A stretch of DNA of 64,000 bases from an uncultured Acidobacteriota bacterium. Its GTDB lineage: Bacteria > Acidobacteriota > Thermoanaerobaculia > Thermoanaerobaculales > Sulfomarinibacteraceae. The notes below the pieces were generated by a model. It did not search any database, had not been told where the DNA came from, and saw only the letters and a program-made list of their open reading frames with translations. Below are positions 5,900 through 54,956 of the stretch, piece by piece (position 1 is the first letter of the stretch; every line of letters starts with the position of its first letter). The stretch is taken from NCBI GenBank assembly GCA_963844845.1, contig CAWJPW010000011.1:384476-448475 (forward strand), in the 5' to 3' direction. The position numbers and the translations under genes were made by a program.

Positions 5900-5929
5900 G
5901 GTGGCGCGCTTGAGATGCGCGCCTACACC
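5900..5929 (-). repeat. Solitary REP-like hairpin of the same family as the 9.4-12.1 kb array
   Basis: GGTGGCGCGCTTGAGATGCGCGCCTACACC. It has a GC stem (GGCGCGC/GCGCGCC) followed by CCTACACC, which is the reverse complement of the GGTGTAGG head. Confidence 0.6.
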
Positions 5930-8451: not shown

Positions 8452-9321
8452 CTACTTCTGCTCGAGGACGTCGAGGAGGTATCTCCCGTAGCCGTTCTTG
8501 CACAGCGGCTCGGCGAGGCGAGCGAGCTGCTCGTCGTCGATGTAACCCATGTACCAGGCGATCTCCTCGGGGCATGCGATCTTGAGGCCCTGGCGCTCCT
8601 CCACCACCTGGATGAAGTTGGCGGCCTGGAGCAGCGACTCGTGGGTGCCGGTGTCGAGCCAGGCGAAGCCGCGGCCCATGATCTCCACGCGGAGGTCGCC
8701 CCACTCCAGGTAGCGGCGGTTGACGTCGGTGATCTCGAGCTCGCCGCGGGGGGAACGCTCGAGGCTGCGGGCCACCTCCACCACGCGGTTGTCGTAGAAG
8801 TAGAGGCCGGTGACGGCAAGGTTGGAGCGTGGCGCGGTCGGCTTCTCCTCGAGGGTGAGCACGCGGCCGTCGTCGTCGAACTCGACCACACCGTAGCGCT
8901 CGGGGTCGCGCACCCAGTAACCGAACACGGTGGCGCCGCGCTCGCGCTGTGCCGCGGTGTCGAGCATGTCGGGGAGGCCGTGTCCGTAGAAGATGTTGTC
9001 GCCGAGGATGAGGCAGACGTCGCCGCTGCCGATGAAGTCGGCGCCGATGAGGAATGCCTCGGCGAGCCCACCGGGGGTGGGCTGCTGAGCGTAGCTGAGG
9101 TCGAGGCCCCAGCGGTGGCCGTCGCCCAGCAGGCGCTGGAAGGCGGCCTGATCCTCGGGGGTGGTGATGATGAGGATGTCGCGAATCCCCGCCAGCATGA
9201 GGGTGGTGAGGGGGTAGTAGATCATCGGCTTGTCGTACACCGGCATGAGCTGCTTGCTCACGGCGATGGTCAACGGGTGCAGGCGGGTGCCGGCACCGCC
9301 GGCGAGAATGATCCCCTTCAT
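8452..9321 (-). CDS. rmlA: Glucose-1-phosphate thymidylyltransferase
   Basis: From the ATG at 9321: [55 protein letters not shown]...[10 protein letters not shown]...EEKP. This is the classic RmlA sequence. The track ORF (to 9735) over-extends into the repeat array. Confidence 0.95.
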
Positions 9322-9420
9322 CACAGACCTCCGAGCAGACGCCAGACACTGTACGAAAGACGGGGCGATGAGGGAAGGGGGCGCGTGGGAGCCGTGGCCC
9401 TGGCAACGCTGCTCCATGGG

Positions 9421-10046
9421 CAGGCGGGGGGTGTAGGCGCGGAGCTTCTCCGCGCCACCAGGGCGCCCACCGGGCGTGCTCCGCTTGCCTGGCCCGGCCG
9501 ATCGCCGTGGGTCGCCGGAACCCCCGCCCCCGCGCCAACGCCAAGGGTGGCGCGCGAAAGTCGCGCGCCTACACCGGCGGAGCGTCGGCTGCTTCGACGA
9601 GGCGTCATGGGCGGGCGGGGGGTGTAGGCGCGGAGCTTCTCCGCGCCACCAGGGCGCCCACCGGGCGTGCTGCGCTTGCCTGGCCCGGCCGATCGCCGTG
9701 GGTCGCCGGAACCCCCGCTCCCGCGCCAGCGCCAAGGGTGGCGCGCGAAAGTCGCGCGCCTACATGGGCATGGAATTCACAGCCCCGGCCCGCGCCAAGG
9801 GCGACCCATCGACCGCGTCGGCCTCCCGAGGGCGGGCGGGGGGTGTAGGCGCGGAGCTTCTCCGCGCCACCAGGGCGCCCACCGGGCGTGCTGCGCTTGC
9901 CTGGCCCGGCCGATCGCCGCGGGTCGCCGGAACCCCCGCCCCCGCGCCAACGCCAAGGGTGGCGCGCGAAAGTCGCGCGCCTACACCGGCGCGGGATCGG
10001 CTGCAACGCGGGCGATCGACCCCGACGCCTGGGGCGCGCCTACACC
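9421..10046. repeat. Left block of REP-doublet units (3 units plus a half-REP)
   Basis: Each unit runs GGTGTAGGCGCGGAGCTTCTCCGCGCCACC ...~95 nt... GGTGGCGCGCGAAAGTCGCGCGCCTACACC, that is two GC hairpins in inverted orientation. Unit spacing is 191 then 221 bp. A half-REP GGGGCGCGCCTACACC at 10031-10046 contains the RAYT stop codon. Confidence 0.9.
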
Positions 10047-10567
10047 TTGGGTTCCAGAGCCTGATGCCACAGGATGTCTTCGGGGCTCCTGGAGGCATCG
10101 AGGAGATCGCCCAGGTTCGGCCACATCAGCGAACCCGACGCTCCCCAATCGGCCCAGTGCTCCACCAGGCCCTTGCGCACCGGATTCTCGATGATGTACC
10201 ACACCGTCGCTGCGATCCCGTCCAGCCGGCGGATTACCCGGTCGTGGTACCCGCGCTGCCACACGGGGCCCTCAGCACGCTCATGCCGCAGATTGCGAGC
10301 TACTACCGCTTTGAATGCCTGGGCGAACGCTCGCGGCGACCTCAGCGGAGTCACCACCAGGACATGAACGTGGTCAGGCATCACGCAGTACGCCAGGGTG
10401 CGCCATCCCACCTCATGGAGGTTGCCCAGAACAGCCAGTGCAACCTCGGAAACGCCGGCCCGGCTGAGCAGGGGCTGCCGATTCGCGGTGCACATCGTCA
10501 GCAGAACGAGCCGACGCTTCTCTGCAAATACACAATCGTCGAGATGGTGGAGCTTGCGACGCAGCAC
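10040..10567 (-). CDS. REP-associated tyrosine transposase (RAYT; IS200/IS605-like Y1 HUH transposase)
   Basis: 175 aa. Has the HUH motif PDHVHVLVV, an N-terminal LLTMCTANRQPLL, and a C-terminal WYIIENPVRKGLV (the Y..NPVRxGLV helix typical of RAYTs). Flanked on both sides by inverted REP hairpins. GTG start. Confidence 0.8.
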   Translation of the reverse strand: MLRRKLHHLDDCVFAEKRRLVLLTMCTANRQPLLSRAGVSEVALAVLGNLHEVGWRTLAYCVMPDHVHVLVVTPLRSPRAFAQAFKAVVARNLRHERAEGPVWQRGYHDRVIRRLDGIAATVWYIIENPVRKGLVEHWADWGASGSLMWPNLGDLLDASRSPEDILWHQALEPKV

Positions 10568-10619
10568 CTATCGATGATAGCCGCGCCGCCCTCTTGCCCG
10601 CACCGCACGCCAACGGGCA

Positions 10620-12102
10620 GGGCGGGCGGGGGGTGTAGGCGCGGAGCTTCTCCGCGCCACCAGGGCGCCCACCGGGCGTGCTGCGCTTGCCTGGCCCGGC
10701 CGATCGCCGTGGGTCGGGGGAACCCCCGCCCCCGCGCCAACGCCAAGGGTGGCGCGCGAAAGTCGCGCGCCTACACCGGCATGGAATCCACAGCCCCGGC
10801 CCGCGCCAAGGGCGACCCATCGACCGCGTCGGCCTCCCGAGGGCGGGCGGGGGGTGTAGGCGCGGAGCTTCTCCGCGCCACCAGGGCGCCCACCGGGCGT
10901 GCTCCGCTTGCCTGGCCCGGCCGATCGCCGCGGGTCGCCGGAACCCCCGCCCCCGCGCCAACGCCAAGGGTGGCGCGCGAAAGTCGCGCGCCTACATGGG
11001 CATGGAATTCACAGCCCCGGCCCGCGCCAAGGGCGACCCATCGACCGCGTCGGCCTCCCGAGGGCGGGCGGGGGGTGTAGGCGCGGAGCTTCTCCGCGCC
11101 ACCAGGGCGCCCGCCGGGCGTGCTCCGCTTGCCTGGCCCGGCCGATCGCCGCGGGTCGCCGGAACCCCCGCCCCCGCGCCAACGCCAAGGGTGGCGCGCG
11201 AAAGTCGCGCGCCTACACCGGCATGGAATTCACAGCCCCGGCCCGCGCCAAGGGCGACCCATCGACCGCGTCGGCCTCCCGAGGGCGGGCGGGGGGTGTA
11301 GGCGCGGAGCTTCTCCGCGCCACCAGGGCGCCCACCGGGCGTGCTGCGCTTGCCTGGCCCGGCCGATCGCCGTGGGTCGCCGGAACCCCCGCCCCCGCGC
11401 CAACGCCAAGGGTGGCGCGCGAAAGTCGCGCGCCTACACCGGCATGGAATTCACAGCCCCGGCCCGCGCCAAGGGCGACCCATCGACCGCGTCGGCCTCC
11501 CGAGGGCGGGCGGGGGGTGTAGGCGCGGAGCTTCTCCGCGCCACCAGGGCGCCCGCCGGGCGCGCTGCGCTTGCCTGGCCCGGCCGATCGCCGTGGGTCG
11601 CCGGAACCCCCACCACGGCGCCAGCGCCAAGGGTGGCGCGCGAAAGTCGCGCGCCTACACCGGCATGGAATTCACAGCCCCGGCCCGCGCCAAGGGCGAC
11701 CCATCGACCGCGTCGGCCTCCCGAGGGCGGGCGGGGGGTGTAGGCGCGGAGCTTCTCCGCGCCACCAGGGCGCCCACCGGGCGTGCTCCGCTTGCCTGGC
11801 CCGGCCGATCGCCGCGGGTCGCCGGAACCCCCGCCCCCGCGCCAACGCCAAGGGTGGCGCGCGAAAGTCGCGCGCCTACACCGGCATGGAATTCACAGCC
11901 CCGGCCCGCGCCAAGGGCGACCCATCGACCGCGTCGGCCTCCCGAGGGCGGGCGGGGGGTGTAGGCGCGGAGCTTCTCCGCGCCACCAGGGCGCCCGCCG
12001 GGCGTGCTGCGCTTGCCTGGCCCGGCCGATCGCCGCGGGTCGCCGGAACCCCCACCACGGCGCCAGCGCCAAGGGTGGCGCGCGAAAGTCGCGCGCCTAC
12101 AC
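10620..12102. repeat. Right block: 7 near-identical tandem 221-bp REP-doublet units with a 442-bp higher-order pattern
   Basis: Exact 221-bp phasing of GGTGTAGG heads. Units 5 and 7 share the variant CACCACGGCGCCAGCGCC in place of CGCCCCCGCGCCAACGCC. The 65-nt linker contains an AT-richer core, CATGGAATTCACAG. Confidence 0.9.
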
Positions 12103-12164
12103 TGGCGGGGGGTCGGCTGCTTCGAGGCGTCATGGGCGATCGGGTGAGCGCCCCCCGGTCTCCC

Positions 12165-13388
12165 CTACCCCACCGCCAGGCTGCGGTAGTACTCCGCCGC
12201 GCGCTCCAACCCCTCGCCCAACCCCACCTCGGCGGCGAAGCCGAGGGCGTCACGAGCGCGCGTGGCATCGGCCATGGAGTGGCGCACGTCGCCGGGGCGG
12301 GGCTCGCCGTGGATAGGCTCGGGGCCGCCACCGGCTGCCGCCCGCACCAACCGAGCCAGCTCGTTCACCGTGGTGCGGCTGCCCGGGGCGACGTTGTACG
12401 CCCGCCCACACGCCTCCGCCGAGGCGCCGGCGGCGTGGAGATTGGCGGCCACGGCGTCGGCGACGAAGGTGAAGTCGCGGCTCTGCTCGCCGTCGCCGTG
12501 GATGAGCGGCGGCTCGCCGGCCAGGCTGGCGGCGAAGAAGCGCGGGATCACCGCGGCGTAGGCCCCGGCGGGATCCTGGCGCGGGCCGTAGATGTTGAAG
12601 TAGCGCAGGCCCACCAGCTCCATGGCGTAGCAGGCGGCGAACAGCTGCGCCAGCTCCTCGTTCATGACCTTGGAAAGAGCGTACGGCGACAGCGGCATCC
12701 CCTCCTCGCCCTCACGCTTGGGCAGGGTGTCGGAGTCGCCGTACACGCTGGAGGAGGAAGCGTAGACCAGCCGGCGGACGCCGGCGTCGCGGGCCGCCGC
12801 GAAGACGTTGGCGGTGCCGGCGACGTTCACCGCAATGCTGGTGGCGGGATCGGCCATGGAGCGCGGCACCGAGCCCAGGGCGGCCTGGTGGAAGACGTAG
12901 ACGGGAGAGGGAAGACGGGAGACGGGAGACGCTTTCCCCCACCCACCCGGGGCCTCCGCGGTACCGGCGCCTGAGACCCCATCCGTCGGTACCGGCGCAG
13001 CCGGCTCGGTGGGGTCGGCGTCGGGGTCGGTGCGGCCGGTCATCGCCGAGGTCACCAGCGCACCGCGGCCACCGAGGCCGGCGCGCCCGTCGAGGGGCTC
13101 GAGCCCCATGGCGAGGCGGCAGTCGCCCGCGTTGCGGATATCGCCCAGAACCACGGTGACGGGCGCCACCGACGAGGCGACGACGGTGGGCAGCGGCGCC
13201 GCGGCGAGGGCCTCACGCTCGGCCGGCGCGAGCAGGTGGGCGAGGTTCTCGACCCTTCCTGTGGCGAGGTTGTCGAGCACGGTGACCCGTGCACCCCGCT
13301 CGAGCAGCGCATCCACGAGGTGGGAGCCGATGAAGCCGGCGCCGCCTGTTACAGCCACCGGCACGTCACGAAGCATCGGAATGGTCAT
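12165..13388 (-). CDS. NAD-dependent UDP-sugar 4-epimerase (WbpP/TviC-like extended SDR) carrying a 67-aa in-frame insertion
   Basis: Rossmann motif VTGGAGFIGSHLV, HQAALGSVPRS, catalytic SPYALSK, and GLRYFNIYGPRQDPAGAYAAVIPRF. The protein is 407 aa versus about 340 typical. The extra segment between GDIRNAGDCRLAMG and VYVFHQAALG corresponds to 12903-13103. Confidence 0.85.
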   Translation of the reverse strand: MTIPMLRDVPVAVTGGAGFIGSHLVDALLERGARVTVLDNLATGRVENLAHLLAPAEREALAAAPLPTVVASSVAPVTVVLGDIRNAGDCRLAMGLEPLDGRAGLGGRGALVTSAMTGRTDPDADPTEPAAPVPTDGVSGAGTAEAPGGWGKASPVSRLPSPVYVFHQAALGSVPRSMADPATSIAVNVAGTANVFAAARDAGVRRLVYASSSSVYGDSDTLPKREGEEGMPLSPYALSKVMNEELAQLFAACYAMELVGLRYFNIYGPRQDPAGAYAAVIPRFFAASLAGEPPLIHGDGEQSRDFTFVADAVAANLHAAGASAEACGRAYNVAPGSRTTVNELARLVRAAAGGGPEPIHGEPRPGDVRHSMADATRARDALGFAAEVGLGEGLERAAEYYRSLAVG

Positions 13389-13394
13389 GTCGCT

Positions 13395-13823
13395 TCAATC
13401 CTCCTGGTCGATTGGCGGCGCCGGCTGGGGAGACGAAAGACGGGAGACGGAAGACGCTCTGGTCCCACAATCCCGCAACGTGGTCACCAGGCCGGAGAGC
13501 AACGCGAAGACGCGCTCGAGGGACCTGGCGGCCGGGGCTCCGCGTCCAACAGGGAGAAAGCCGAGCTGATGAGCGATCCTCAGCTGAGTGTCAAGCTCGA
13601 CGAGCGAGCCTCGGGCCATCATCAAGAACCGAAGGAAGTCCTTGTCGGTACCGCGCGCCGCTCCCTCAGCGATGTTGCAGGGCACGGAGACGGCTGCGCG
13701 CCTCATCTGGGACGTGAGCCCGAAGACCTCCTCGCGCGGGAAGTCTGACGTCGCGCGGTACACGTGGGAAACGAGCTCGATCGCCTCCTGCCAAACCTCG
13801 AGATCGTGATGTCGCAGCCTCAT
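13395..13823 (-). CDS. Four-helix-bundle protein ('23S rRNA intervening-sequence protein' family, Avd-like)
   Basis: HHDLEVWQEAIELVSHVYRATSDFPREEVFGLTSQMRRAAVSVPCNIAEGAARGTDKDFLRFLMMARGSLVELDTQLRIAHQLGFL is a textbook match to this family. The last ~20 aa (TRASSVSRLSSPQPAPP...) are read-through into the flanking repeat arm. Confidence 0.9.
   Translation of the reverse strand: MRLRHHDLEVWQEAIELVSHVYRATSDFPREEVFGLTSQMRRAAVSVPCNIAEGAARGTDKDFLRFLMMARGSLVELDTQLRIAHQLGFLPVGRGAPAARSLERVFALLSGLVTTLRDCGTRASSVSRLSSPQPAPPIDQED
13427..13466 (+). repeat. Purine-rich arm (type A) of the inverted pair flanking the four-helix-bundle gene
   Basis: GGGGAGACGAAAGACGGGAGACGGAAGACGC (13427-13457) matches the reverse complement of 14045-14075 at about 26/31 positions. 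Confidence 0.8.
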
Positions 13824-14024: not shown

Positions 14025-14078
14025 CCCCGGGCGGGCGGGGGAAAGCCTCTCCCGTCTCCCCTTTTCCTTCTCCCCTAC
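14025..14078 (+). repeat. Pyrimidine-rich arm (type B) with G-rich head
   Basis: CCCCGGGCGGGCGGGGGAAAGCCTCTCCCGTCTCCCCTTTTCCTTCTCCCC. Its reverse complement is GGGGAGAAGGAAAAGGGGAGACGGGAGAGGC.... It ends 3 nt before the dehydrogenase stop codon (14081-14083). Confidence 0.8.
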
Positions 14079-17685: not shown

Positions 17686-18315
17686 TCAGGCGCTCAGTGC
17701 CTTGAGCGCGTTGGCGTCCACCTCGATGCGGTGTCTGGCCCGCAGCATCTCCATGAGCACCCGCGCGCGCTGGCCGCCCCGCATGTAGCCGTGGAAGATG
17801 CCCTCGTAGCCCCGCAGCGGGCCGGCCATCACCCGGACCCTCTGGCCCTTGGTGAGCTTGTCGAGGAAGGTCTCGGGCACGATGTAACCGTGCTCGGCCT
17901 CCTTCTCGCGCAGGTAGTCGATGAGGCTCTGATCAACCGTGGCCAGCTCCCCCGCGAACACAACCGGGTGGAGAACGCCCGGGCAGAAGCGCACGGCGTT
18001 GAGCTCCTCGGGCAGCCGGCAGCTGACGAAGATGTAGCTGGAGAAGAGCGGCATCGGGCCACGTGGGGCCCGCGTGTGCCACGGCGGCTCGAGGAACATG
18101 GGGCAGTACGGCTCCACCCCCCGCTGGACAAGATGGCGCATGGCGATCCGCTCCTGGCGGGGCTTGGTCCGCATCACCAGCCAGTGCAGACTGCAGTCGA
18201 GCGCTACAGTATCGACGCGACCCTCCCTTTCTCGATCCTCGCCCGAATTATGTGAACCTCGCGCCCGCCGTGTCAAGGTGAGCCGGAGGAGGGGCAAGCA
18301 GTCTCGTGCCGCCAA
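17686..18315 (-). CDS. NusG-family specialised transcription antiterminator paralogue (RfaH/UpxY/LoaP/TaA-like)
   Basis: NGN-like HWLVMRTKPRQERIAMRHLVQRGVEPYCPMF...PLFSSYIFV. KOW-like GQRVRVMAGPLRGYEGIF. It is the first gene of the co-directional polysaccharide string. The start is uncertain: the track uses TTG at 18315, and the internal GTG/ATG at 18177/18174 would truncate the NGN strand. Confidence 0.75.
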   Translation of the reverse strand: MAARDCLPLLRLTLTRRARGSHNSGEDREREGRVDTVALDCSLHWLVMRTKPRQERIAMRHLVQRGVEPYCPMFLEPPWHTRAPRGPMPLFSSYIFVSCRLPEELNAVRFCPGVLHPVVFAGELATVDQSLIDYLREKEAEHGYIVPETFLDKLTKGQRVRVMAGPLRGYEGIFHGYMRGGQRARVLMEMLRARHRIEVDANALKALSA

Positions 18316-19576: not shown

Positions 19577-20160
19577 GGGAGACGGAAGTCGGTAGAAGGA
19601 AAACGCTTCCCCCGCCCGCCCCCGTGGCCGGGTGACCGGGGCAGGGACCGCGGCAGGGGCAGCGTCAGGGTCAGGGGCAGGGACAGGGGCAGGGTCCGGC
19701 GACCGGCGACCGGCGGCCGGGGCCGTGGACCGGGGCCGGGGCCGTTGGCAGGGGCCGGGACCGCGTGCGTGTGCGCGTCCGGGATCGTGGGTCGAGTCCG
19801 TCCCGGAGCACCTGCCCTCCGGCGGACGTGCCACCTCCGACACTTTTCCTTCGAGCGCCTCCTCGCGTTGAAGCGCGCTCGGGGAAACAGTGTCGGGGGT
19901 GGCAATCACGGCCCTTGGCGTTCGCAGAAGTGGCCCCGAACCACGAGGCAGGCGACTCGGCGCTGGGACCCGGGGGCGGCCTCGTTGCCGTCTGTCAGCT
20001 CGTGTCGTCGCCGCCCCCGGGGCCGCGTCGACGGGCGGCACAGCCGCCCGGGAGCCGGTCTCCGCAGCTGCGGTGACCGCGACCCTCGCGGAGGACCGCC
20101 GCACCCCGCAGCTGGGTGGGCGGGGGAAGCTTCTTCCTTCTCCCCCTCTTCCTTCTCCCG
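19577..20160. repeat. ORF-less composite cassette bounded by a type A/type B inverted arm pair
   Basis: Arm A (19577-19623) is GGGAGACGGAAGTCGGTAGAAGGAAAACGCTTCCCCCGCCCGCCCCC. The reverse complement of arm B (20115-20160) is CGGGAGAAGGAAGAGGGGGAGAAGGAAGAAGCTTCCCCCGCCCACCC. The interior holds a GGGNCA-type hexamer tract (19626-19770) and copy 1 of the ~250-nt structured repeat (19819-20068). Confidence 0.8.
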
Positions 20161-20207
20161 TGATCGGGCGCCGACACAGCCCTCCGTCCTTGCTATGATG
20201 AAGAGCT

Positions 20208-37482: not shown

Positions 37483-37730
37483 GCTCCGGACACCGGCTCC
37501 CGGGCGGCTCCACCGCCCGTCGGCGCGGTCCCGGGGGCGGCAGCGGCGTGCGCTGCCGCACGGCAACCAGGCCGCCCTCGGGCCCTCAGCGCCGAGTCGC
37601 CTGCCTGGTTGTTCGAGGCCACTGCTGCGAAGGGTGTACCCGTGGATTGCCACCCATGGCGTTTCCCCCAAGCGCGCTCCAAGTGAGGAGGAGCTCCCGG
37701 GAAGACGCCATAAGTGGCACGTCCCACCGG
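37483..37730 (-). repeat. Copy 2 of the ~250-nt structured dispersed repeat (orientation label arbitrary)
   Basis: Shares the near-identical module CACCGGCTCCCGGGCGGCTCCACCGCCCGTCGGCGCGGTCCCGGGGGCGGCAGCGGCGTGCGCTGCCGCACGGCAACCAGGCCGCCCTCGGGCCCTCAGCGCCGAGTCGCCTGCCTGGTTGTT with copies at 39201 and 39510. The distal hairpin arms are CCATGGCGTTTCCC (37654-37667) and GGGAAGACGCCAT (37699-37711). Confidence 0.85.
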
Positions 37731-37918: not shown

Positions 37919-39199
37919 ATGAAGGTCCCGAGGATCCTCGCCGCAGTGCTCTTCGGCTGTGTGTTGTGCGCCGGTGCCACGGAGTTCACCGTGAACTCGA
38001 CTCTCGACGAGATCGACGCCGTACCCGGCGACAGCAGCTGCTTCTCCACACCGAGCGGCGTGTGCACGCTCCGCGCCGCCATCATGGAGGCGAATGCGTT
38101 GAGCGGCCACGACGACATCACCGTGCCGGCCGGGCACTATGTCCTGTCCCTCACAGGCCTCGAGGAGAACGGCTCGGCAACCGGAGACCTCGACGTCGTG
38201 GAGCCCCTGTTCATCACCGGTGCCGGGATCGGCGCCACCGTCATCGACGCCAACCACATCGACAGGGTCTTCCAGGTCCTCATGGGCGACCTCTCTCTCG
38301 AAGATCTCACCATCCAGAACGGATCCGCCGTAACCTCGGGCTCCGCGAGCGGTGGCGGCATCTACCACGGGGGCAACAACCTCTGGCTCACCCGAGTACG
38401 GCTCACCGGCAACCAGGCCAACGCCGGCGGCGGCCTCCAGGTCGCCCACGAATCGTGGGCGGTTATCCAGGCCAGTACATTCGACCACAACTCCACCGTC
38501 GACCTGGACGTCACCAACCAGTGGGGAGCGGCGGTGCTCAGCAGTGGCACCCTCAGCCTCTCCTCCACCACTGTGACCGCCAACAGCAACGCCGTGGGCG
38601 ACACCGAGGTGGTCTTCCTGGAAAGCTGCAACACCGAGTTCTCGAACATCTTGGACTCGACCATCGCGTTCAACAGCGGCGGCGGCGTGTACGCCTACAA
38701 CTGCAGCCTGACCGTGAGTAACTCGACCATCTACGCCAACTCCGGCTACGGGATCGAGTTCGGCATCTACACCGGGCTGGACTACACCCTGACCGGGAAG
38801 AATTCGATCATTGCCGGCAACAGCCCGTCGGACTGCATCCTGTGGTCCGGAACCATCGCCTTTTCACACAACCTGGACAGTGACAACACCTGCGGGCTCG
38901 AGCTCGCTGCGGGCGACCTGCCGGCCACCGATCCGGTGCTCCTTCCCCTGCGCAACTGGGGCGGGTCCAACCAGAGCCTGTACCCCAAGCCCGGGGCCAG
39001 CCCGGTGATCGACGCCGGCGGGACGAGCTGCACACCCTTCGATCAGCGCCACGTCGCCCGTCCCGTCGACGGCGACGGCAACGGCTCCGCCGTCTGTGAC
39101 ATGGGCGCCATCGAGGCGGGCGACCTCATCCTCTGGGCCGGCCACGAGGCCGGCAACAGCGACGAGTGGTCGTCCACGGCAGGCCTCGCAACGCCCTGA
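37919..39199 (+). CDS. Secreted right-handed parallel beta-helix protein ('choice-of-anchor Q'/Pmp-like repeats)
   Basis: Signal peptide MKVPRILAAVLFGCVLCAGA. CTLRAAIMEANALSGHDDITVPAGHYVLSLTG...GDLDV. Repeated G-rich beta-helix turns (GGGIYHGGNN, NAGGGLQV, SGGGVYAYN). C-terminal CDMGAIE. Confidence 0.7.
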   Translation: MKVPRILAAVLFGCVLCAGATEFTVNSTLDEIDAVPGDSSCFSTPSGVCTLRAAIMEANALSGHDDITVPAGHYVLSLTGLEENGSATGDLDVVEPLFITGAGIGATVIDANHIDRVFQVLMGDLSLEDLTIQNGSAVTSGSASGGGIYHGGNNLWLTRVRLTGNQANAGGGLQVAHESWAVIQASTFDHNSTVDLDVTNQWGAAVLSSGTLSLSSTTVTANSNAVGDTEVVFLESCNTEFSNILDSTIAFNSGGGVYAYNCSLTVSNSTIYANSGYGIEFGIYTGLDYTLTGKNSIIAGNSPSDCILWSGTIAFSHNLDSDNTCGLELAAGDLPATDPVLLPLRNWGGSNQSLYPKPGASPVIDAGGTSCTPFDQRHVARPVDGDGNGSAVCDMGAIEAGDLILWAGHEAGNSDEWSSTAGLATP

Positions 39200-39200
39200 A

Positions 39201-39446
39201 GCGGGCACCGGCTCCCGGGCGGCTCCACCGCCCGTCGGCGCGGTCCCGGGGGCGGCAGCGGCGTGCGCTGCCGCACGGCAACCAGGCCGCCCTCGGGCCC
39301 TCAGCGCCGAGTCGCCTGCCTGGTTGTTTGGGGCGGGTACTCCGGGCGCTTCGGGCCGTCAGTGCCCCCCCGAACACTGTTTCCGCGATCGGGCTGCAAA
39401 TGAGGAAGCGCTCCAGGAAAAGTGTTCGGGACGGCACGTCGTGCGG
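39201..39446 (-). repeat. Copy 3 of the structured dispersed repeat
   Basis: Starts 2 nt after the beta-helix gene stop. Distal hairpin arms are CCCGAACACTGTTTCC (39369-39384) and GGAAAAGTGTTCGGG (39416-39430). Confidence 0.85.
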
Positions 39447-39509: not shown

Positions 39510-39762
39510 CTGCGGGCACCGGCTCCCGGGCGGCGGCTGGCCCGCCGCCCGTCGGCGCGGACCCGAGGGCGGCAACGGCGTGCGCTGCCGCACGGCAACC
39601 AGGCCGCCCTCGGGCCCTCAGCGCCGAGTCGCCTGCCTGGTTGTTTGGGGCCACTGCTCCGGTCGCCAAGGGCCGTGGGAGCCCCCCTTGACGTTTCCCG
39701 CCAACGCACCGCAAGGGAGAGCGCGCTTGAGGGAAGACGTCAAGGACGGCACGCCCGCCGGA
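39510..39762 (-). repeat. Copy 4 of the structured dispersed repeat (direct tandem with copy 3, ~64-nt gap)
   Basis: Distal hairpin arms are CCTTGACGTTTCCC (39686-39699) and GGGAAGACGTCAAGG (39731-39745). Confidence 0.85.
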
Positions 39763-39847: not shown

Positions 39848-39876
39848 GGTGGCGCGCGAAAGTCGCGCGCCTACAC
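39848..39876 (-). repeat. Solitary REP hairpin identical to the array's right-hand REP
   Basis: GGTGGCGCGCGAAAGTCGCGCGCCTACAC, read directly. Confidence 0.8.
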
Positions 39877-40044
39877 AGCATCACACCGCTCCCAACGCGC
39901 TGAGGCTGTACGGGCACGCCGCCCTGGCGCAGCCACGGCCGGACGCGAGGGAGGTGCCGTGCACACGCTCGCGTGTGCAGCGGCGCCGACCGAGTGGCCG
40001 TAGGCCGCGAAGCGGCCGGCGTGCCCCGGCGGCTGCACCGCGCC

Positions 40045-54599: not shown

Positions 54600-54704
54600 C
54601 GAAGGCCAGGGGTGCCGCCGGGGTCCGGCCGTGGCTCCGCCACGGCGGCGTGCCCTCACGCGCTCCGCAGAATCGACCCGAGGCCGCCTCGGAGCAGGGA
54701 TCCT

Positions 54705-54956
54705 CCGGCGGACGTGCCGTCCCGAACACTTTTCCTGAGGCGCCTCCTCGTTCGTAGCGCGATCGCGGAAACAGTGTCCGGGGGGGCACTCACGGCCCGT
54801 GCCATTCGGAGCAGTTGCCCCAAACGACCAGGCAGGCGACTCGGCGTGTTCGCGAAGGGGGCTATGTTGCCGTCAGGCAGCCACTGCCGTCGCCCCCTTC
54901 GCGAACGCGCCGACGGGCGGCGGCTCAGCCGTCGCCCGGGAGCCGGTATCCGCAGC
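54705..54956 (+). repeat. Copy 5 of the structured dispersed repeat
   Basis: CCGGCGGACGTGCCGTCCCGAACACTTTTCCTGAGGCGCCTCCTCG...GGAAACAGTGTCCGGG...CAGGCAGGCGACTCGGCG...CGACGGGCGGCGGCTCAGCCGTCGCCCGGGAGCCGGTATCCGCAGC is colinear with copy 1 (19819-20068). Confidence 0.8.

Follow-up and report, generated by a model that had tools for sequence, protein, structure and literature searches.

The stretch of DNA analysed here, 64 kb in its full length (hereafter the window), contains at 9415–12144 ten copies of one repeat unit, with a single interruption by an open reading frame (ORF) on the minus strand (10040–10567). The ORF encodes 175 amino acids from a GTG start and is identified by its sequence as a REP-associated tyrosine transposase (RAYT, or TnpAREP), REP standing for repetitive extragenic palindrome. 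Each repeat unit holds two inverted REPs, and the locus is very probably a REPtron, consisting of one RAYT gene, for an HUH Y1 single-strand DNA nuclease-ligase, amid its cognate repeats. The RAYT gene occupies a linker position, with three REP doublets forming hairpins (REPINs) to its left and seven to its right. In total, the array comprises 20 REPs and one half-REP in about 2.2 kb of repeat.

Tandem Repeats Finder described the right part of the array (10619–12106) as 6.7 copies of a 221-bp period with a 97% match, and the left part (9415–9764) as 1.8 copies of a 191-bp period. The first unit has the 191-bp period because its linker (linker A, 45 nt) differs and is shorter. Each of the ten doublets is 146 nt long, has a spacer of 86 nt and carries GTAG at either outer end. 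On the plus strand, the left boundary of the array (9415–9429, CATGGGCAGGCGGGG) is composed of a microhomology and a G-rich extension and is followed by REPIN 1 (9430–9575), which contains REP-a (9430–9459), the spacer and an inverted REP-b (9546–9575). Linker A (9576–9620) lies between units 1 and 2; it repeats the right outer flank of the array and has CATGGGC(A/G)GGCGGGG in common with the left outer flank. REPIN 2 (9621–9766) precedes the first of seven copies of linker B (9767–9841, 75 nt), whose 3′ end is again the G-rich extension 5′ of a REP-a. REPIN 3 (9842–9987) follows, its REP-b (9958–9987) carrying GTAG on the minus strand.

A unique linker (9988–10046) lies 3′ of the RAYT gene and ends in the half-REP GGCGCGCCTACACC (10033–10046), while the 5′ region of the gene on the minus strand (10568–10631) spans the 64 nt from the GTG start to the REP-a of unit 4 and ends in the G-rich extension. 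REPINs 4–10 (10632–12103 as a whole; singly 10632–10777, 10853–10998, 11074–11219, 11295–11440, 11516–11661, 11737–11882 and 11958–12103) are separated by the six other copies of linker B (10778–10852, 10999–11073, 11220–11294, 11441–11515, 11662–11736 and 11883–11957), with a period of 221 bp. The right outer flank (12104–12144), which is homologous to linker A, closes the array. The linkers are of three types: linker B seven times, linker A once and the RAYT-containing linker once. The RAYT gene is flanked by inverted cognate REPs, with the REP-a at 10632 (plus strand) on one side and the half-REP and the REP-b of 9958–9987 on the other. An inverted-REP module repeated head-to-tail together with its flanking segments, here with linker B present seven times, corresponds to a BIME-2 (bacterial interspersed mosaic element) or tandem REPIN cluster, as described in PMC3116915, PMC3733652 and PMC2817692.

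An earlier interpretation made from the letters alone (the sequence-only reading) had placed three and seven repeat units around the ORF, each with two inverted GC hairpins of about 30 nt preceded by GTAG. Repeat mapping bore this out, and REP-a and REP-b were found in all ten units. Its dimensions of about 155 nt for the doublet and about 95 nt for the spacer were corrected to 146 and 86 nt, and its 221-bp satellite holds for 6.7 copies of the period but not for the first unit, with its 191-bp period. A CRISPR array was rejected as a candidate: successive repeats point in opposite directions, and neither kind of inter-repeat segment is unique, each recurring with 97–99% identity. Plus-strand ORFs of 207 amino acids that run across the array were rejected as coding sequences; their translations are the repeat in shifting frames, and they occur because the G+C-rich repeat, whose period of 221 bp is not divisible by three, has no stops in the frame concerned.

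REP-a (GGTGTAGGCGCGGAGCTTCTCCGCGCCACC, a 30-mer) is present in 10 exact copies, all on the plus strand and all within 9430–11987, while shuffled sequences gave 0. REP-b (GGTGGCGCGCGAAAGTCGCGCGCCTACACC, likewise a 30-mer) has 10 copies in the array with 0–2 mismatches, plus one at 39848; shuffled sequences again gave none. The anatomy is GTAG, directly followed by a perfect 9-bp G+C stem with a 3-nt loop. GTAG stands 5′ of 20/20 array hairpins, each on its own strand, and of both solitary REPs described below. The predicted DNA folding energies of the REP-a and REP-b hairpin types are −12.6 and −13.9 kcal/mol (z = −5.4 and −4.7). The sole difference between REP-a and the reverse complement of REP-b is at the top of the stem (GAG/CTC versus CGA/TCG), and it is fully compensated. 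When the entire doublet is folded, the 6 bp at its outer ends pair and each REP folds into a hairpin of its own (z = −4.2), and the REPIN is a tail-outward heterodimer (‘HH’ in the terms of PMC3733652).

A G-rich extension of 12–13 nt, GGGCGGGCGGGG, lies 5′ of every REP-a, including the one beside the RAYT 5′ region. The 13-mer GGGCGGGCGGGGG, 5′ of every REP-a (e.g. 9417–9429), also occurs exactly at 14029–14041 and 19609–19621, the inner ends of two arms of the intervening-sequence (IVS) type that are described below. It could be a shared target or structural motif (it is G-rich and possibly quadruplex-forming), or its recurrence could be due to chance in a genome of 70% G+C.

The TAG stop codon of the RAYT gene (10042–10040) is the TAG of the half-REP GGTGTAGGCGCGCC, as proposed from the sequence alone; the CTA on the plus strand is its complement. 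No second arm of the half-REP was detectable. A full REP with a large loop, pairing with CGCGCC 41 nt away, was considered and rejected, as the fold with the next 41 nt was no better than those of shuffles (z = 0.07). Rfam yielded no family at gathering thresholds in the window, and at E ≤ 1 the array gave only two sub-threshold chance matches.

All of the REP copies are intergenic, and two of them lie outside the array within the window, so that the REP is not confined to the array. The sequence-only reading had made its case depend on the REP occurring elsewhere, and these two copies bear it out. The solitary REP-b (39848–39877, plus strand) has 1 mismatch and the 9-bp stem with its 3-nt loop, and is accompanied by about 16 nt from the spacer side. 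The other, at 5900–5929 (plus strand), is a third variant, REP-c (GGTGGCGCGCTTGAGATGCGCGCCTACACC), which keeps the GTAG foot and the lower stem and forms a 7-bp stem with a 7-nt loop (−10.6 kcal/mol, z = −3.8). Beyond the window, the pattern GGTGTAGGCGCG-N9-CGCGCCACC had 0 exact matches in 185,579 species-representative genomes, in collections that do not hold the source genome, and 0 matches in the 241 million metagenome records of the JGI metagenome collection. Sites with GTAG and a perfect palindrome number 22 in the window, whereas no locus with at least two was found among 80 fetched epimerase loci (1.24 Mb), which come from Thermoanaerobaculia and other Acidobacteriota and from other, more distant taxa. 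A blastn search of plasmids with the RAYT gene and its flanks gave no match. Judged by the pattern search, the REP sequence is lineage-specific and private.

The RAYT protein scored 89.2 bits against the NCBIfam model REP_Tyr_transpos (NF047646; cutoff 80) and 35.7 bits against Pfam Y1_Tnp, and the similarity to HUH Y1 enzymes that the sequence-only reading required is significant; its score against the IS200/IS605 equivalog model, 33.8 bits, was under the cutoff of 55. The HUH motif and the C-terminal Y..NPVRKGLV helix reported earlier are both present: the former is H66-V-H68 (in HVHVLV), and the catalytic tyrosine is Y124, within YIIENPVRKGLV. An exhaustive HMMER search with the protein retrieved 6028 representative clusters at E ≤ 1e-3, of which 577 remained at E ≤ 1e-10, and apart from the RAYT itself no protein exceeded 45% identity.

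Residue conservation was taken from an alignment of 40 sequences from among the best matches, all of which (40/40) match NF047646. H66, Y124 and P129 are invariant, and H68, W103, Q104, D109, R113, N128, V130, R131 and G133 are conserved in at least 90% of the sequences. The aligned positions coincide with the HMH, WQ and Y-I-x-x-NPV motifs of 4ER8, and W103-Q104, D109, R110 and R113 correspond to the positions described as contacting GTAG in E. coli and in subclasses 2.5/2.7 (W94, Q95, E100 (D), H101 (R) and R104). By alignment, the conserved positions make up the HUH motif, the helix with the catalytic tyrosine (YIIENPVRKGLV) and the WQ...R segment, which in the E. coli enzyme makes contact with GTAG. 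The AlphaFold2 model of the protein (pLDDT 91.4, pTM 0.88) had as its top Foldseek match in the PDB 4er8_A, which is E. coli TnpAREP with a REP hairpin (E = 5.6e-7, TM-score 0.58/0.61).

The source gene call (P0001) begins at M25 and gives 151 amino acids, which would remove the first β-strand. Homologs align from residue 3 of the RAYT, and the first strand of the model spans residues 20–27; therefore the P0001 call is probably truncated, and homologs and structure model favor the GTG start at 10567 as the probable start. In the 5′ region (10568–10631), neither a Shine-Dalgarno sequence nor a sigma-70 consensus was detected, and a TATCAT motif lies directly upstream of the GTG. With no obvious Shine-Dalgarno sequence and TATCAT so close, the RAYT mRNA may therefore be leaderless. 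The gene has a G+C content of 63.8% and a third-position G+C (GC3) of 0.76, compared with 70% for the window and GC3 values of 0.87–0.98 for the neighboring genes, which fits weak codon adaptation or a foreign origin.

We surveyed 83 fetched loci with homologs of the RAYT gene, and most of them are flanked by GT[AG]G hairpins. In one layout, the gene lies within a single doublet (L081, L082 and many others). In a second, ‘+− gene +−’, which is that of the present locus, the gene lies between two tail-outward doublets (L094, L111, L120, L128 and L142), and L104 is an extended multi-REP form. Beside the gene, about 12 of the 83 loci carry short modules in tandem (period 41–129 bp, 2–4.7 copies); longer arrays would be under-represented by short-read assembly. 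A REP overlaps the 3′ end of the ORF in L081 and L084, as it does here. The GTAG ends that face the gene in our locus were considered as an anomaly, and this was dropped, since the same arrangement is the second common layout of the survey.

Similar architectures have been described in other bacteria. RAYT genes are flanked by inverted REPs, sometimes directly past the stop codon; one third of the first surveyed RAYTs are directly associated with BIMEs, and E. coli yafM has BIME-2 on both sides (PMC2817692). In Pseudomonas fluorescens SBW25, the commonest higher-order arrangement is that of tandem clusters of near-identical REPINs including flanking sequence, with one REPIN cluster beside each RAYT (PMC3116915), and large REP clusters consist of dimers reiterated in tandem with flanking DNA (PMC3733652). 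PMC8266576 sets out the REPtron concept and finds Marinomonas REPs concentrated around tnpAREP. Genes for tnpAREP occur in about one quarter of bacterial species.

The E. coli K-12 REPtron (tnpAREP/yafM, with BIME-2 of Y and Z2 REPs) resembles the present locus in its single RAYT gene, in the tandem inverted-REP modules on both sides, which are heterodimers, in the GTAG foot, and in the HUH and tyrosine residues, and its protein is the best structural match (4ER8). However, the palindromes of the E. coli REPs are long, imperfect and bulged, while those described here are short and perfect, with a 9-bp stem and a 3-nt loop. The protein identity is about 21–25%, and the signature of the E. coli enzyme, of subclass 2.2, is DHLH/WE/YIHYNP, as compared to DHVH/WQ/YIIENP here. 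Ten REPINs are present here as against three in the E. coli locus, and at 221 bp the module is much longer.

The systems of group 3/subclass 2.5, represented by SBW25 and the Stenotrophomonas maltophilia REPtron Sm, are alike in that GTAG is directly followed by a short perfect palindrome, of 16 nt interrupted by 3 nt in REPSm and of 18 nt interrupted by 3 nt here. Foot and stem measure about 12 nt in our REPs, the published range being 10–13 nt. Also shared are D and R in place of E. coli E100 and H101, inverted doublets (REPINs) with conserved spacers, and tandem clusters, including flanking sequence, beside the RAYT gene. On the other hand, the hosts of these systems are gammaproteobacterial, whereas this one is probably an acidobacterium, and the RAYT described here, with its 175 amino acids, has at most 45% identity to any known protein. 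The doublet spacings in SBW25 are 71 and 110 bp, as compared to an 86-nt spacer, and its largest ordered cluster has four REPINs in just over 700 bp, as compared to ten in about 2.2 kb.

Profile, motifs, predicted fold, REP anatomy and the comparison of 83 homologous loci agree, and with them the core of the sequence-only reading, a RAYT/REP system whose doublet has been amplified in tandem around the RAYT gene, is upheld. By analogy with the E. coli, S. maltophilia and Marinomonas enzymes, the RAYT would bind the folded single-stranded REP through the GTAG foot, the stem and the loop, and would cleave and rejoin DNA near the bound REP. REPs and REPINs would spread through the genome in this way, while the RAYT gene would stay single-copy and immobile. 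The architecture itself is already known from the REPtrons, BIME-2 and REPIN clusters of E. coli, Pseudomonas and Stenotrophomonas, and it is not a new kind of system. What stands out is the scale (20 REPs, about 2.2 kb), the probable host lineage (Thermoanaerobaculia-like), in which such systems are not known to have been characterized, a divergent RAYT (at most 45% identity) and a private REP. Array size and module length are at or beyond the upper end of the descriptions in the papers cited.

Several points weigh against this interpretation. REP dispersal is seen within 64 kb, at two extra loci, and the RAYT copy number of one was likewise counted in the 64-kb window. The half-REP and the adjoining REPs point their GTAG ends at the gene, the reverse of what the simplest layout shows (L081, L082) but in keeping with the second common one. 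The signature DHVH/WQ/YIIENP fits no published subclass exactly; with D109 and R110 it sits between subclasses 2.5 and 2.7 and matches neither. The host lineage, probably Thermoanaerobaculia-like, is a tentative placement from two adjacent polysaccharide genes, a class prone to transfer: the best matches of the neighboring epimerase and dehydrogenase are metagenome-assembled genomes of Thermoanaerobaculia and other Acidobacteriota, at 64–76% amino acid identity. Finally, tandem duplication and RAYT-driven rolling-circle amplification, which we weigh below as origins of the array, predict very similar products.

The array lies in a string of minus-strand genes in the order NusG paralog, Wzc-type protein (chain-length/tyrosine-kinase), nucleotide-sugar dehydrogenase, ‘23S rRNA IVS’ protein (a small four-helix bundle), TviC-like epimerase, array with RAYT, rmlA, a TauE-family gene and an fcl-like gene. 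Upstream, the stop codon of the TviC-like NAD-dependent epimerase gene (12165–13388, minus strand) is about 20 nt from the array flank. Its product belongs to the epimerase/dehydratase family (Pfam Epimerase, 188 bits), the 231 bits scored with the TviC model being far under the 760-bit cutoff. Downstream, rmlA (8452–9321, minus strand; TIGR01207, 502 bits, cutoff 361) starts 94 nt beyond the array end. These assignments confirm the earlier placement of the array between rmlA and a TviC-like epimerase. The GDP-fucose-synthase-like (fcl) protein scored 497.5 bits against a 500-bit cutoff. The NusG paralog at the head of the string (17686–18315, minus strand) scored 78.8 bits with the RfaH model and 64.4 bits with the UpxY model, both under the curated cutoffs, and its sequence suggests a specialized paralog for processive antitermination in a polysaccharide locus. 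Among the 80 epimerase loci, only the dehydrogenase-epimerase pair is syntenic, and rmlA is never downstream; a splitting of an older gene string by the array, as in the sequence-only reading, is therefore no more than a possibility.

Between 9000 and 13000, neither strand showed terminator-like sites, and the array region had no sigma-70-like sites. The REP hairpins were accordingly rejected as intrinsic terminators, as they have no U-tracts. The sequence-only reading had considered the location unusual, and had argued that any read-through transcript must cross about 20 strong hairpins. The first point does not hold, as REPs and BIMEs between co-transcribed genes are classical (REP325; one third of RAYTs with BIMEs); the second overstates the case, since hairpins without U-tracts are no intrinsic terminators. 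REP325, in the E. coli yjdMN operon, is a partly Rho-dependent attenuator and an mRNA stabilizer (bioRxiv 10.64898/2026.03.23.713779). As in REP325 and other intra-operon REP clusters, hairpins without U-tracts are clustered here between two same-strand genes, and partly Rho-dependent attenuation with stabilization of the upstream mRNA would be expected by analogy; unlike REP325, the cluster is larger and holds the RAYT gene itself, oriented as the operon. On a minus-strand transcript, the roughly 20 hairpins would protect the upstream mRNA from 3′ exonucleases and could attenuate read-through into rmlA, TauE and fcl, partly via Rho, and the RfaH/UpxY-like NusG paralog could counteract this attenuation.

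One alternative is that selection has kept the array mainly as a regulator, a partly Rho-dependent hairpin barrier that uncouples the kinase, dehydrogenase and epimerase from rmlA, TauE and fcl. The strength of such a barrier could be tuned by the repeat copy number and overridden by the NusG paralog, and the proposal is compatible with the account of origin that we favor. The same-strand position close to both neighbors, with distances of about 20 nt to the epimerase stop and 94 nt to the rmlA start, the NusG paralog at the head of the gene string and the attenuating and stabilizing REP325 inside an E. coli operon all speak for it. The hairpins, moreover, are invariant in all 20 copies while the spacer varies; however, this is equally expected from RAYT recognition or recent amplification. 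In addition, the junction is present in no relative among the fetched loci, and rmlA may have its own promoter in the 94-nt gap. We therefore regard regulation as a doubtful main reason for the persistence of the array.

How the array grew can be read in part from its linkers and flanks. Linker A and the right outer flank (12104–12144) are identical at 38/41 positions, and both contain CATGGGC, which is found at the left boundary as well. This pattern is what tandem duplication between microhomologies that carries flanking DNA along would leave. Across the ten REPINs, 11 of the 86 spacer nucleotides vary, as compared to none in REP-a and two in REP-b (its outermost two bases), and the seven copies of linker B have 1 variable site in 75 nt (spacer versus linker, Fisher p = 0.006). 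In the four-gamete test, 11 of 66 site pairs showed all four allele combinations. Haplotypes are common to non-adjacent units, and units 8 and 10 share five variants.

Since the near-identical modules include the linker and the flank is repeated at CATGGGC, tandem duplication or unequal recombination is favored over repeated transposition. Rather than ten transposition events, the ten-unit array probably reflects the multiplication of a linker-carrying module, through tandem duplication together with unequal recombination or slippage during replication, and its units were then probably reshuffled by unequal exchange and gene conversion. The sequence-only reading had the doublet amplified into a satellite; we consider duplication of the module, non-REP linker included, a likelier course than transposition by the RAYT. 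The spacer is far more variable than the non-REP linker, which is unexpected if the 221-bp module was simply amplified as a whole. Gene conversion by dispersed REPINs that share the spacer, and not the linker, may account for the excess, although this is speculative.

In the main rival account, the RAYT could have built the array itself, by cleaving at two same-orientation REPs and circularizing a 221-nt module, which would then be copied by rolling circle and re-integrated as a concatemer beside its own gene (Nunvar et al. 2010). This model of BIME formation was published for exactly such a structure (PMC2817692), and HUH enzymes support the chemistry. The head-to-tail modules with alternating REP orientation and identical linkers are as it predicts, and the array lies directly around the RAYT gene, much as Marinomonas REPs are concentrated near tnpAREP. 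However, the CATGGGC duplication footprint lies at the junction of units 1 and 2 and at the outer flanks, away from any REP foot, and two or three linker types are found together in the array. The variants shared by non-adjacent units and the failures of the four-gamete test indicate ordinary recombination, and a cleavage site cannot be assigned from the sequence alone. On balance, a RAYT-built array is unlikely. A more far-reaching version is less likely still: the array would be the preserved product of in-cis rolling-circle amplification by the RAYT, with later variation in length, and the copy number of the 221-bp module would serve as a heritable dial for read-through from the upstream polysaccharide genes into rmlA, TauE and fcl, under an RfaH/UpxY-like antiterminator. 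If true, it would provide natural evidence of how BIMEs form, by a mechanism so far unproven, and of a REPtron with a function at the host level.

The length of the array might also be an assembly artefact, by over-expansion or mis-joining of a short repeat. Tandem repeats of 97–99% identity do assemble poorly, and the homologous loci of short-read metagenomes show just 2–5 modules. Against this, 13 variant sites, arranged as a structured mosaic, tell the units apart, the linkers are of three types, the outer flanks are unique, and the source contig is 968 kb long, so that an artefact appears very improbable.

The IS200/IS605 transposons (IS608, ISDra2) share the HUH Y1 fold and, as far as can be judged by analogy, the recognition of hairpins in single-stranded DNA, where a 5′ tetranucleotide takes the guide-sequence position; unlike the REPs, their hairpins are direct on one strand and bound a multi-copy mobile unit, often with tnpB. 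That one or more autonomous elements of this type landed in the operon, with the hairpins as transposon ends, is hardly credible: it would explain the Pfam Y1_Tnp match and the structural matches to the ISDra2 and IS608 transposases, nearly as good as that to 4ER8, but the RAYT model is passed and the IS200 model is not, the flanking hairpins are mutually inverted with the REP-typical GTAG foot, the window has no tnpB and a single copy of the gene, and the Y-x3-NPV-x-GLV and WQ motifs are RAYT signatures.

Other repeats and inserts were observed in the window. The ‘23S rRNA intervening-sequence protein’ gene (13395–13823, minus strand; PF05635, 118 bits) is bracketed by inverted purine-/pyrimidine-rich arms (14075–14044 versus 13458–13427; 32 nt, 81% complementary). 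It lies between the sugar dehydrogenase and the epimerase, which are directly adjacent in about 20 Thermoanaerobaculia/Acidobacteriota relatives, and gene and arms look like an inserted IVS-type cassette. The epimerase gene itself has an in-frame insertion of about 201 nt (67 amino acids; 12904–13104), between CRLAMG and VYVFHQAA, that none of the relatives compared has. This insertion ends in a 50-nt arm (12952–12903) with 88% complementarity to an arm at 14025–14074. As RNA, the two arms are predicted to be able to pair over about 55 bp (−111 kcal/mol, z = −11.9), which would leave the gene for the IVS protein, along with the 5′ third of the epimerase gene, in the loop.

A second inverted pair of the same arms (19577–19625 and 20107–20161; predicted RNA duplex −86 kcal/mol, z = −9.5) lies upstream of an SNF2-family helicase gene, and the DNA between its arms, about 480 nt, appears to be non-coding. 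Within it, a segment of about 170 nt (19793–19962) is repeated at 54679–54846 with 78–85% identity and without the arms; Rfam gave no family for this region or for the repeat. Another repeat family, of about 150–170 nt and 86–88% identity, has three copies (37484–37655, 39199–39370 and 39510–39687) around an ORF at 37919–39199. Some 160 nt separate the last copy from the solitary REP at 39848, which lies downstream of it.

No example of a domesticated transposase keeping up a population of non-autonomous repeats is better known than the RAYT-REPIN systems, and the spread of REPs and the origin of tandem BIME or REPIN clusters are still to be explained. The present locus is a clean, large and well-preserved example outside the Proteobacteria with a simple, perfect-palindrome REP, and the linkers, the flanks and the variant mosaic of its ten modules record the growth of the array. 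With about 20 hairpins and a RAYT gene set in a same-strand polysaccharide gene string headed by a NusG paralog, it also offers a natural test bed for REP attenuation versus antitermination.

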